Positions 11,401-23,400 of a stretch of 64,000 nt of DNA are shown piece after piece (the first letter of the stretch is position 1; each line of letters starts with the position of its first letter). The notes under the pieces are model-generated. The model searched no databases, was not told the origin of the DNA, and worked only from the letters and a program-made list of their open reading frames with translations. Both the position numbers and the translations under genes were made by a program. Source of the stretch: Octopus sinensis (Eukaryota); the NCBI RefSeq assembly GCF_006345805.1, contig NC_043005.1:51150001-51214000 (forward strand), given 5' to 3'.

Positions 11401-14400
11401 AGATGTCAACTAGATAGTTTCAATGTAGTCGTTCGAAATGCTAGAAAAAAGTAGCCTCGATCTCATGAGTTATCTAAATTAAGCCTAGGCGGCAGCATGG
11501 CGAAATCGTTAGAGTTTCGGTCTGATATTGGATACCTCGCGGTATTTGTTTTGACTCTTTACTAAGAACAAATTGCTTTTCGGGGTCGATAAATAAAAAC
11601 GAACAGATCCAGGAGTGTTAGATGTTTTTTTTCTGGGGCATGAGGATTGGTGGAACAGTAAGAATGCCAGATAGGACACCTTGCAATATTTGATCCAGCC
11701 TTTTGCGTTCTGATCACAAATCCTGCCATGGCTTACTTGAGCGGTAGACTTTTCCCTCGTTGCCCGGTTTAACACTATCATCTGGTACCTTGCGTACCTC
11801 AAGCATTGGAGCCAGGCCTCTGGTTTGGTAATACTTTCCTTCCTTCCGCCCATCAATATCGACTCCCTCTAAAAAGTCATGAGCCTTTAATCTTGACTAG
11901 AACAAAGAAAATGTATCTGTAATAGTTAAGGATTTAGAGATGGGCTATAGTTATTTAAATTCAATGTGTGGATGTGACAAAACACGGATCATCTCTCATT
12001 CGGTTTTTGGATTGGTGACGGCAATCTATTGATGTGGCCTCCTGTTACAACTTTCTCATCAACGTATTGATCAAAATAAATCGATAATAACTTCAACAGA
12101 AGAAAACATCAACAATCAATAAGCATACTACAGGTGTATCGTGAAATAAAAGCTACGAAATGTCGAAGTGACGAATCTAGAAATTGATTTGGCTGTTTTG
12201 TCTGAATTTTGGAGAATTCTCACACAGTACATATAGCGTTTATTGATGTATGGTAGCTGTATAAACATTATATAATCTAGTGGTGGGGTGCAGTGAAGGT
12301 GTGTAGCTTGGTGGTTAGACTGTTCATCTTACGATCGTAAGTTCGAGAATTCGATTCCCGGCAACGCGTTGTTTCCTTCAGCAAAACACATTATGTCCCA
12401 TTGCTTCAGTCCACTCAGCTGGCAGAAATGAATACCAGCTGTATATCAAAGGGCCAGCCTTGTCACATTCTATATCATGCTGAATCTCCCTAAGAAGTGC
12501 GTTATGGTTACGTGTACCGGTGGAGTGCTCAACCACTTTCACGTTAGTTTCGCGTTAATTTCATGAATAGGCTATTCCATTGATTGGATCAACTGGAAGC
12601 CTTGTCGTCATAACCGACGGAATGCCAGTGTGTGCATTTTCAACAATAAATATCTCTTCTGATCCTGCAAGAAACTGATAGCATAATACTTATCGTTAAG
12701 GCGGCGAGCTGGCAGAAACGTTAGCACGCCGGGCGAAATGTGTAACCGTATTTCGTCTGTCGTTACGTTCCAAGTTCAAATTCCGCCGAGGTCGACTTAG
12801 CCTTTCATCCTTTCGGGGTCGATAAATTAAGTACCAGTTACGCACTGGGGTCGATGTAATCGACTTAATCCCTTTGGCTGTCCTTGTTTGTCATCTCTGT
12901 ATAATAAGTATAATACTTATCTTAATAGCGTTGCTGTTGTTGATGATGATGATGGGGAGAAGGAGGCGGTATGTTGGTGGACGAGGAGGACTGTATTTCT
13001 GAATTCATTAGACAAGTTTATATTTTGTATAATTAACGACAGTAAATTTAAACCATTTTTTTTTCTATTTTGCATTCTATTTCTTCAATAACACACAACA
13101 GACATGAAAGGATACAGGAATCAATATAAATTCGTTGATCCTCGATTAAACCTATAAATTGAAAAAAAAAACGTTTTTTTTTAATATAGTGGTCGTATAC
13201 TGTCAACTCAATGTGACAGTCTCGTAAGGGAATTACACCACCGCCATTTAGCCCTAGAAAACATCGACGTCTCCTGTCGGCTTTGACACATTTTCTGTGT
13301 CCTTATATTTGCAAAGGGGAGGCAATCACCCCCGCAAGCCGGGACAAGACACCTGAAGACATATGTTTCTGAGTATACTGCTCATCGTCAGTTCAGGGTA
13401 GCCTGCCTCGCTCGCTGAGATGACGGCAACCTCTCTGCAAATATATCATATTATCAGTAAAATTTATTTACTAATCACCGAAATTAGAAATATTGAATTT
13501 CTAAATGTCTCAGAGAGACTGTAGAAAGTAATAATTCATTTCTTTTCGTAAAAGTTACATACACATTATTAAGCGATTCATTTTAATATGATATAACAGA
13601 GATATGGTGTCGTAATGTTTCGTATTGGCAGAATAATACTGAAGAATTGCTGTCGATTATATCGACGCCAATTCTTCACTAGTTCTTCTCATCCTCCCTT
13701 TTCTCTTCTTTATTTCTTCCTTCTTTTTCTCCTATTCCATCTCTACTCCTTTCTCCTCTTTCTATCCCTTTACTTAGCAAAGTTATAAACCTTTATCTTG
13801 AAACAAAACAATAGTAATAAGTGTTAAAATCCGTGGATCACCGAATAAAATTTTTGTGGTGCTTAGGTACGTCGTTTTAGATTCTGGATCTAATTCTTTC
13901 ATCAGTCGAATTTACCAGTCGTCGTCTTTGCCTCTCATTCACTTCTCTAGGTATAAAAGGAAATGAACGAAAATCATTAATTAAAAAAACAAAAACTTTA
14001 CACTTTTCCTGTTTTTTTTTTATTTTACAGAGGGCAATTTTGTCCCACGTCAACCAAAGTTGCAAGTAATGTAACGGAGAAATGCGGCAAATTTTTAGCA
14101 ATGGTAGGAAAAGGATATTCTTTGGATAAAAAGGCATCCAATCTTCTGGGCTTAAGCGAAGGCGAATTGATGTACAAAATCCATAAATGGTCACTAGACA
14201 TTCAATCCAGTCCAGATTGTACTTTTACCAAGTAAGAAATATTCAGAATTTATTCCTTTATTCCTTTTATTTTTTAACTTATTGGAATCATGCAAAAGAA
14301 TAAACAGCTATTTTAATTTATGTTTTCAGATCTAATTTCATGTTAGAAATGAAAAGTTGTTTTTTTTTGTTTTTTTTTTTAATTATGTCTCATTTGTATT

Positions 14401-20400: not shown

Positions 20401-23400
20401 CATAGAACAGTGAACCACAGCGTCGAGTTTGTTAACTCCGTTGATAACACACATACCCAACAAATAGAGAGTACTTGGGCGCGTGTTTGGAACGGGGTAA
20501 CAAGCGACGGTGTGGTACACACCGTTCTATGATTGACTCGTATCTCTGCGAATTCATGTGGCGGCAGACACGAAAAAAGTGACTTTGGGGGAAATTGCTG
20601 GCAAGCATTAGAAATTTCTCCAATGATTGTTAATCCTTTCGGTACTATATTTCTGACCAAAATACACCCCTCATAAGTTTCAATTGAATAGTAAAATAAT
20701 CATGAATATAGACTAGTTTCGTTTGAACTGGGTTCATGAGCAAGTCATGTGCGCATACTTCTCGCACATAACTGTTATAGGCTACAGCTGCATTGTGGCT
20801 CATCCCCAGTTCTACTACGGTTGTGGGTAACCACAAGATAATTTTTTTATCTGGTGGTCAATGAGGAGACTAGGGATGGATGAATGGTTAGTGAGAGCTG
20901 TACAAGCCATGTACAGTAAGGTGAGGGTTGGCAACGAGTACAGTGAAGAATACCGGGTCAATTATGCTAGACTAGATGGAGCCTGTCGCAGCCGCTGGCT
21001 CTCCAAGATTTCAGTCAAACTGTCCAACCCATGCCATCATGTAAAACGGACGTTAATCGATGATGATGATGATGATATAATTAATTAAAGTTGGATGCAA
21101 GCAAACGATTAATAGTAGAGAGCAGTAACGTTCGGAGCAAAAAGTTGGCGGCCGGCGACCGGCGGTACGATCGGAAAGCCGTCATCTCGGCAGCAATATC
21201 GACCTCGAGTGTGTGTCCGATAGCGTGCGTAACACACGGACGCATTGCGTTCGTGCACGCGGCTAAGGTGGCGATAAATAGCTAATAATAATAATAATAA
21301 GCAACGAAATTTTTTGTAAAACTTATCCGAACAGTTTCCCTGAAGTGGACGAAAGTACTAATATCCAAAATTCTTACTACCTCCTTTTTCTTAATATACA
21401 AAATTTGTACATCACTTGAAACAATCTATACACACAGAGACATGTATATTTTTTAACTTGTATATATACATATACACACACACACACACACACACACACA
21501 TATATATATATATATATATATATATATATATATATATATATATACATATACATGTGTGTGTGTATGTGTGTGTGTGTGTGTGTGTAGATTCTTATATATA
21601 TAAAGAATAAAAAATACTTATGGCACAGATCTAAAAATCTTTACGTAGATATTAAAAGCAGTGGACAAAGTGGTAGAATATTAGAAATTGGTGAAGCATT
21701 TAATATAAACAATGATATCTGAAGTATGTAAAGGATTTCCAACATGCCTGCTGGTTTCAAGAAAACTAATGCAGAAATCTAAGCCGCTTATCAGTAAATA
21801 TAACAAGACACCGAATCCATAGAGCCGTATTATTTTATTATGTACTGTAAATATATTAACTTTTCTGCTTTCAGTCACCCTTGATCAAAGTGCACTGAAT
21901 AAAGTAACAAAGAAAATCGTGAATGTGGGTTTCGCCACTTGCCGCGTCTATGGTATATACAGCTATAGAACATTTGACGGAAGTAACTATGATTTTGGCG
22001 GAGCATGCAGATACACTTTAGCCAGTGAAGGGAAAAACTGGTACGTGGAGATCGAATCTCACAACTGTAACAGCTTCACAACATGCAGAAAGGTAAGCTT
22101 TTTATTATTATTATTAGTAGTAGTAGTAGTAGTAGTAGTAGCAGCAGCAGTAGCAGTAGTAGTAGTAGTAAGGCGGCGAGCTGGCAGAATCGTTAGCACG
22201 CCGGGCGAAATGCTTAGCGGTATTTCGGCTGCCGTTACGTTGTGAGTTCAAATTCCGCCGAGGTCGACTTTGCCTTTCATCCTTTCGGGGTCGATAAATT
22301 AAGTACCAGTTACGCATTGGGGTCGATGTAATCGACTTAATACCTATGTCTGTCCTTGTTTGTCCCCTCTGTGTTTAGCCCCTTGTGGGTAATAAAGAAA
22401 TAGGTATTTCGTCTGCCGCTACGTTCTGAGTTCAAAATCCGACGAGGTCGACTAAGGTAGTTGACTTTTCATCCTTTCAGGGTCGATAAATTAAGTACCA
22501 GTTGCATACTGAGGTTGATCTAATCGGCTGGCCCCCTCCCCTAAAATTTCAGGACTTGTGCCGATAGTAGAAAGGATTATTATTATTACCATTATTATTA
22601 AGGCAGCGAGCTGGCAGAATCGTTAGCACGCCGGACGAAACGCTTAGCGGTATTTCGTCTGTCGTAAGGCGGCGAGCTGGCAGAAACGTTAGCGCGACAT
22701 GCGAAATGCTTAGCGGTATTTCGTCTGTCGCAACGTTCTGAGTTCAAATTCCGCCGAGGTCGACTTTGCCTTTCATCCTTTCGGGGTCGATAAATTAAGT
22801 ACCAGTTACGCACTGGAGTCGAAGCAATCGACTTAATCCCTTATGTGTTCTTGTTTGTCCTCTCTGTGTTTAGCCCCTTGTGGGTAGTAAAGAAATAGGT
22901 ATTTCGTCTGTCTTAATGTTCTGAGTTCAAATTCCGCCGAGGTCGACTAAGCCTTTTATCCATTCGAGGTCGATAAATCAAGTACCAGTTGTGTACTGGG
23001 GTCGATCTAATCGACTGTCTCTCCCCCTCCCCCAAAATTTCGGGCCTTGTACCTCGAGTAGAAAATAATGTTCTGAGTTCAAATGCCACCAGGTTCAACA
23101 TCGCCTTTTATCCTTTCGGGATCTATAAATTAAGTATCAGTTACGCACTGGGGTCGATGTAATAGACTTAATCCCTTTCCCCAAAAGTTGAGGCCTTGTG
23201 CTTCCAGTAGAAAGGATTATGATTCTTTTATTCTTTTACTTGTTTCAGTCATTTGACTGTGGCCATGTTGGAACACCGCCTTTAGTCGAACAAATCGACC
23301 CCAGGACTTATTCGGTTGTCAAGCGATGGTGGGGAGACAAAGACGGACACACAAACATATATGTGTGTGTGTGTGTATATATATATATATATATATATAT

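Follow-up and report, generated by a model that had tools for sequence, protein, structure and literature searches.

SCO-spondin-like proteins of invertebrates have already been described (PMC4948705; PMC7333891). The limpet protein P-vulgata_3 occurs in pedal mucus and is expressed in the pedal sole (PMC7333891), and proteins named 'SCO-spondin(-like)' are listed in the skin mucus of Octopus vulgaris (PMC11431876, PMC10138644). In vertebrates, the N-terminal module of SCO-spondin is termed EMI (PMC8487547, PMC6089837); a five-residue insertion in this module abolishes the Reissner fibre of zebrafish (PMC6089837), and a 2021 review states the mechanism of Reissner-fibre polymerisation as unresolved (PMC8487547). 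The heads of MUC2 still form filaments without inter-chain disulfides (PMC7599080), and properdin contains a 'short TB' (STB) domain, defined by the TB cysteine pattern without the 5-8 pair, which makes an inter-protomer contact (PMC6736995).

Here, we analysed a window of 64,000 nucleotides from Octopus sinensis (contig NC_043005.1, positions 51,150,001 to 51,214,000), an AT-rich eukaryotic stretch (35% GC) with one large gene on the + strand. An original prediction from the letters alone had read this gene as a fibrillin/LTBP-like head fused to a vWF/mucin body. We consider it fairly probable that the window holds the first 21 predicted exons of a molluscan SCO-spondin-like gene for a secreted mucus or adhesive filament glycoprotein. 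A search with exon 5 returned one protein, P0001 (1,596 aa; 89% on exon 5 and 80% over the whole model), in which Pfam finds VWD x3, C8 x3, TIL x4 and LDLa x6. The full layout is likely an EMI-type module, an EGF, a predicted STB and three VWD-C8-TIL assemblies, with LDLa repeats as in P0001. There is nothing unusual about the gene within its family, which is widespread in molluscs and already linked to mucus, and we do not class its product as a vertebrate-type SCO-spondin in the strict sense.

The N-terminal head

The predicted motifs and exon structure were found in place on the + strand, with the EGF and the TB-like module on symmetric phase 1-1 exons. The resemblance to fibrillin fared less well. 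Exons 2 and 3 encode six cysteines (33, 47, 92, 105, 106 and 114 of the model) in a module that aligns with 72 N-terminal modules of vertebrate SCO-spondin (HHalign 97.8%, E 1e-12), and the CCxGW motif is the end of this module. In the AlphaFold prediction for the P0001 head (14-row alignment, mean pLDDT 87), strands 6-20 and 65-79 form a long hairpin into which two helices are inserted; this helical insert between the two strands belongs to exon 2. The fibrillin FUN domain has four cysteines and little regular structure, and its junction to EGF recurs in HHIP, WIF1 and Jagged, the motif being common in EGF-EGF pairs (PMC3794157); thus, the fibrillin likeness of CCxGW reflects a shared junction and not a FUN domain.

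Between the EMI and the six-cysteine module, no EGF-sized cysteine cluster was found in the vertebrate SCO-spondin sequences (0/76). Either the mollusc-type line acquired the EGF exon or chordates lost it.

The module encoded by exon 5 has the spacing C-x5-C-x17-CC-x15-C-x2-C (model residues 160-204). It precedes VWD1, as predicted, although not directly, since a linker of about 27 residues lies between them. Exon 5 and 16 of 19 head-family proteins share six cysteines in TB order, without Cys5 and Cys8, which is the pattern of the properdin STB; both AlphaFold models matched TB-fold structures in a fold search, in line with the proposed TB-type fold lacking the 5-8 pair. Mollusc-type and vertebrate modules align with each other (HHalign 85%, E 6e-6; control 0.3%), and a profile built from vertebrate sequences only placed exon 5 at the top of 1,319 six-frame segments, with a score that exceeded those of all 1,000 shuffles. 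The original prediction knew of no TB-like module in this family; we found the six-cysteine module in 80 of 83 vertebrate SCO-spondins and, among the 36 other proteins of that search, only in four mollusc head-family members. A sequence match to the properdin STB, fibrillin hybrid/TB, LTBP TB or follistatin N domains was not detectable. With moderate confidence, we suggest from the structure models that the module would adopt an STB-type fold, for which disulfides 1-3, 2-5 and 4-6 (TB 1-3, 2-6 and 4-7) are expected, and that this extends to vertebrate SCO-spondin. A TB-type domain is absent from the SCO-spondin domain list in the available part of the 2021 review (PMC8487547), and neither an EMI-EGF-STB head nor an STB in vertebrate SCO-spondin was found in the literature searched, domain catalogues being outside that search.

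In the three remaining vertebrate records (P0174, P0216 and P0219) the module is cleanly absent and the EMI is joined to the pre-VWD1 linker, which may reflect an omission in the gene model or an exon that can be skipped, a property that the symmetric exon 5 would share.

The dipeptide insertion of LTBP for TGF-beta binding lies between Cys6 and Cys7 (PMC13443091). All 16 intact modules have CC in place of the CCC triplet and a two-residue gap between Cys6 and Cys7 that lacks this insertion. Judged by its sequence, the module is not of the canonical or LTBP TGF-beta-binding type, and the suggested binding of TGF-beta or microfibrils is not supported. It is for these reasons very improbable that lineage-specific exon shuffling joined a fibrillin/LTBP head to a vWF/mucin body to give a protein binding microfibrils or TGF-beta-family ligands, the reading to which the junction before the EGF had pointed: WIF1 and HHIP score close to fibrillin-1 on that junction, the module before the EGF has six cysteines and matches the SCO-spondin EMI, and the head is not lineage-specific, because it is shared with vertebrate SCO-spondin. 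We rejected the fusion on the shared head and on the presence of an EMI-type module and not a FUN domain.

The D assemblies, the relatives and the probable link to mucus

VWD1, VWD2 and the start of VWD3 were all found in the window model. Among the vertebrate proteins tested by blastp, it scored best with the SCO-spondins of coelacanth (546 bits) and Xenopus (544 bits), against 444 bits for lamprey SCO-spondin, 379-396 for mucins and 376-390 for hemolectins. In a FastTree phylogeny of D1-D3 (27 rows, which left out vWF and otogelin), a branch of support 99 parts the head family and the SCO-spondins from mucins, hemolectins and an amphioxus and a coral protein. At the place of CGLCG, the window model reads QGLCG and RGMCG; SCO-spondin and hemolectin likewise lack the motif. 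With numbering set by spacing to the residues named in PMC7599080, the Cys1088-equivalent is retained and the Cys1130-equivalent absent in P0001 and its relatives, while the latter is present in 3/3 MUC5-type sequences. A body of vWF/mucin type, as originally proposed, would differ in CGLCG and in the Cys1130-type inter-chain cysteine, and in P0001 LDLa repeats come next, as in SCO-spondin.

These comparisons also bear on a role in haemolymph clotting or encapsulation like that of insect hemolectin/hemocytin. Hemolectins also possess three D assemblies with the same cysteine pattern in D3, and a similar EGF lies close to their N-terminus (29-37 bits). However, they lie on the opposite side of the support-99 branch, have neither EMI nor six-cysteine module, yielded no LDLa match in Pfam and carry F5/8C, which is absent from the head family, and we regard such a role as most improbable.

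The affiliation with a molluscan SCO-spondin-like family is reinforced by its other members. A full HMMER scan with the P0001 head gave 928 matches, mostly EGF arrays, and among the best 150 of these at least 13 proteins other than P0001 aligned with the head as a single stretch, so that the arrangement is more than chance. In 14 scanned head-bearing relatives (including one scallop protein; several are fragments), VWD was found in 12 and LDLa in 7, and the 14-row alignment A1 retains the cysteines of all three head modules. The named members, bivalves and one chiton, come from Argopecten, Pecten, Ylistrum, Potamilus, Sinanodonta and the chiton Liolophura (scallops P0002, P0247 and P0262; unionids P0028 and P0155; chiton P0210) and are labelled SCO-spondin(-like) or mucin-2-like; the best named blastp match of the window model is a chiton protein (867 bits). 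P0001 falls within the head-family group with support 100 (FastTree) and 86 (quick IQ-TREE).

Past the LDLa block, the content of proline, threonine and serine (PTS) is 35-50% in P0002, P0099 and P0116. In the scallop protein P0002, residues 1600-3480 are made up of long tandem repeats, some 200 residues in each. Every repeat combines a two-Cys non-PTS unit with a Thr-rich spacer and has no Pfam match, and this is possibly an undescribed CysD-like mucin module; P0028 has a long low-cysteine stretch in the corresponding region. By eye, the end of P0032 appears knot-like (compare the C-terminal cystine knot of SCO-spondin).

Is the protein a component of epidermal mucus, or could the same family and domains serve neural or glial secretion, as an equivalent of the Reissner substance or as a matrix of the statocyst or a sensory organ? 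SCO-spondins are the closest vertebrate relatives, which favours the neural setting. On the other hand, the TSP1/TSR motif was found in 0/8 long head-family proteins (several without natural C-terminus) against 19 copies in Xenopus, and it is to the TSR part that neuronal effects have been linked (PMC7333891). Pfam matched neither TSP_1 nor F5/8C in the scanned head-family relatives, several of which are C-terminally incomplete. Together with the limpet protein in pedal mucus and the mucin-like PTS tracts of several relatives, this leads us to consider the neural setting unlikely.

Several results nevertheless weigh against a mucus protein of SCO-spondin type. In Owenia, radial-glia-like cells in the nerve cord and in the brain contain SCO-spondin mRNA (PMC5543218), and the PTS content past the LDLa block of P0028 is lower than in the three proteins above (24-34%). 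An IQ-TREE phylogeny of D3 only left the split of the SCO-spondin side from mucins and hemolectins unresolved. Pfam EMI did not match the module of exons 2-3 and the fold search with the head model returned no solved EMI, so the EMI label is indirect.

Proposed assembly and gene structure

A polymerising secreted protein, as first proposed, is likely. The hydrophobic leader suggests that the protein would be secreted, and filaments could then assemble through D1-D2/D3 contacts by analogy with MUC2; the missing Cys1130-type residue is compatible with this step because MUC2 heads do not need inter-chain disulfides to form filaments. By analogy with the zebrafish EMI and the properdin STB, the EMI-EGF-STB head would likely act as an N-terminal protein-protein assembly module, and in the long relatives the Thr/Ser/Pro-rich stretch past the LDLa repeats would likely confer mucin-like gel properties. 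The presumed mucus or adhesive setting is drawn from the limpet P-vulgata_3 and the octopus skin-mucus proteins named SCO-spondin.

Since the EMI-STB-VWD head is common to mollusc-type proteins and vertebrate SCO-spondin, it is likely ancestral to both lines, with only the EGF exon differing. We also observed, in a 'mucin-2-like' protein of the soft coral Dendronephthya (P0242), a head (residues 1-620) with an EMI-like end, Cys-rich modules and several EGFs, but no six-cysteine module, ahead of VWD x3 and LDLa x7, which bears on the ancestral head.

We speculate, while holding it unlikely, that an STB right behind the EMI has gone unrecognised in SCO-spondins, from those of molluscs to those of marsupials, and that the EMI-STB head is a protomer clasp in the Reissner fibre and in mollusc filaments. 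If so, the VWD superfamily would join fibrillin/LTBP, follistatin and properdin among the carriers of the TB fold. A properdin-style STB-TSR clasp would not be the ancestral role, since the mollusc proteins lack TSRs (if truly so). The six-cysteine module adjoins the EMI, the only domain so far shown to be necessary for Reissner-fibre assembly, and this position, given the state of the polymerisation question (PMC8487547), makes it a new target for study in zebrafish.

The spliced model runs through 21 exons from 2371 to 63367 (1,175 codons, zero stops in the frame check), 15 further exons having been added to the first six, with AG/GT at 20/20 introns; the predicted joins follow exon phases and colinearity with gene models of other species. 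Exons 7-12 (25317..39645) complete the D1 assembly (VWD1-C8-TIL), exons 13-20 (43120..61332) hold the D2 assembly and the D'-like TIL modules, and the gene leaves the window within VWD3. P0001 probably represents a gene model, since exons 25317-25425 and 47241-47405 are missing from it and it contains a stretch that is intronic in the window. This stretch, used in place of exon 25317-25425, has an in-frame stop in the window and likely reflects a gene-model error, or possibly an alternative exon. Transposase remnants and interspersed repeats lie around the exons.

Features of the window, with positions counted from its first letter
Feature	Positions	Strand	Basis or remark
Exon 1: ATG and hydrophobic leader, phase 2 out	2371..2456	+	tblastn with P0001 83%; donor site; frame check; signal peptide called by eye
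Exon 2: N-terminal part of EMI-type module (Cys33, 47, 92), phase 2-2	14031..14231	+	
Exon 3: end of EMI-type module, CCxGW...C (Cys105, 106, 114), phase 2-1	15605..15666	+	
Exon 4: EGF-like domain, phase 1-1	18289..18393	+	Pfam EGF_2 E 4.6e-5, above cut-off
Exon 5: six-Cys module, predicted STB, phase 1-1	19144..19317	+	fold and profile matches
Exon 6: linker and VWD1 start, phase 1-0	21875..22092	+	Pfam VWD E 1e-7
Exons 7-9: D1 assembly	25317-25425, 26255-26422, 29327-29412	+	tblastn with P0001, splice sites, frame
Exons 10-12: D1 assembly	30742-30855, 33307-33463, 39405-39645	+	as for exons 7-9
Exons 13-16: D2/D'-like part	43120-43261, 45182-45499, 47241-47405, 49838-50078	+	
Exons 17-20: D2/D'-like part	54062-54317, 56883-57081, 59402-59493, 61283-61332	+	
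Exon 21: first part of VWD3	63026..63367	+	tblastn with P0001, frame check
Intronic stretch, coding in P0001	23917-24066		
ISXO2/IS1595-like transposase fragment, intron between exons 5 and 6	20251-20529	+	Pfam E 1e-8
Tc1/mariner-type transposase remnants, upstream of the gene and inside intron 1	11-1056, 5202-5576	-	Pfam DDE_3, HTH_Tnp_Tc3_2, Transposase_1
Interspersed repeat of ~200 nt, copies 83-93% alike, both orientations	12697-12900, 15033-15210 (inverted), 22169-23178		like a short interspersed element (SINE) by appearance

Comparison with known systems

Within the TB-fold group (properdin STB, fibrillin hybrid/TB, LTBP TB and follistatin N), the window module is distinguished by its place inside a VWD protein, and it lacks Cys5, Cys8 and the LTBP insertion. 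The N-terminus of fibrillin-1 (FUN-EGF1-3-hybrid1) shares the CCxGW..C..PxC junction into EGF and the order of EGF and TB-fold module, but the octopus protein has an EMI-type six-Cys module in place of the four-Cys FUN, one EGF in place of three and no cbEGF array. With MUC2/MUC5 and vWF the family shares the D1-D2-D'-D3 layout and, in P0001, the Cys1088-equivalent, whereas it lacks CGLCG and the insertion bearing the Cys1130-equivalent, and has LDLa in place of CysD after D3; the mucins lack the head.

P-vulgata_3 and the database mollusc proteins have the same set of VWD x3, C8, TIL and LDLa repeats without TSP1, and the database SCO-spondin-like and mucin-2-like proteins of molluscs also share the EMI-EGF-six-Cys head; the limpet protein, compared by its description only, is 5'-incomplete and its head is not described in the available text (PMC7333891). 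Vertebrate SCO-spondin shares the EMI-type module, the six-Cys module, three D assemblies without CGLCG, the D3/TIL cysteine pattern and the LDLa repeats, and differs, apart from the EGF, in FA5/8C and many TSRs, in place of which several of the mollusc-type relatives have PTS tracts. As a shared character, the EMI-STB-VWD head connects the mollusc proteins without TSRs with chordate SCO-spondin and separates both from the hemolectins and MUC5-type mucins examined.

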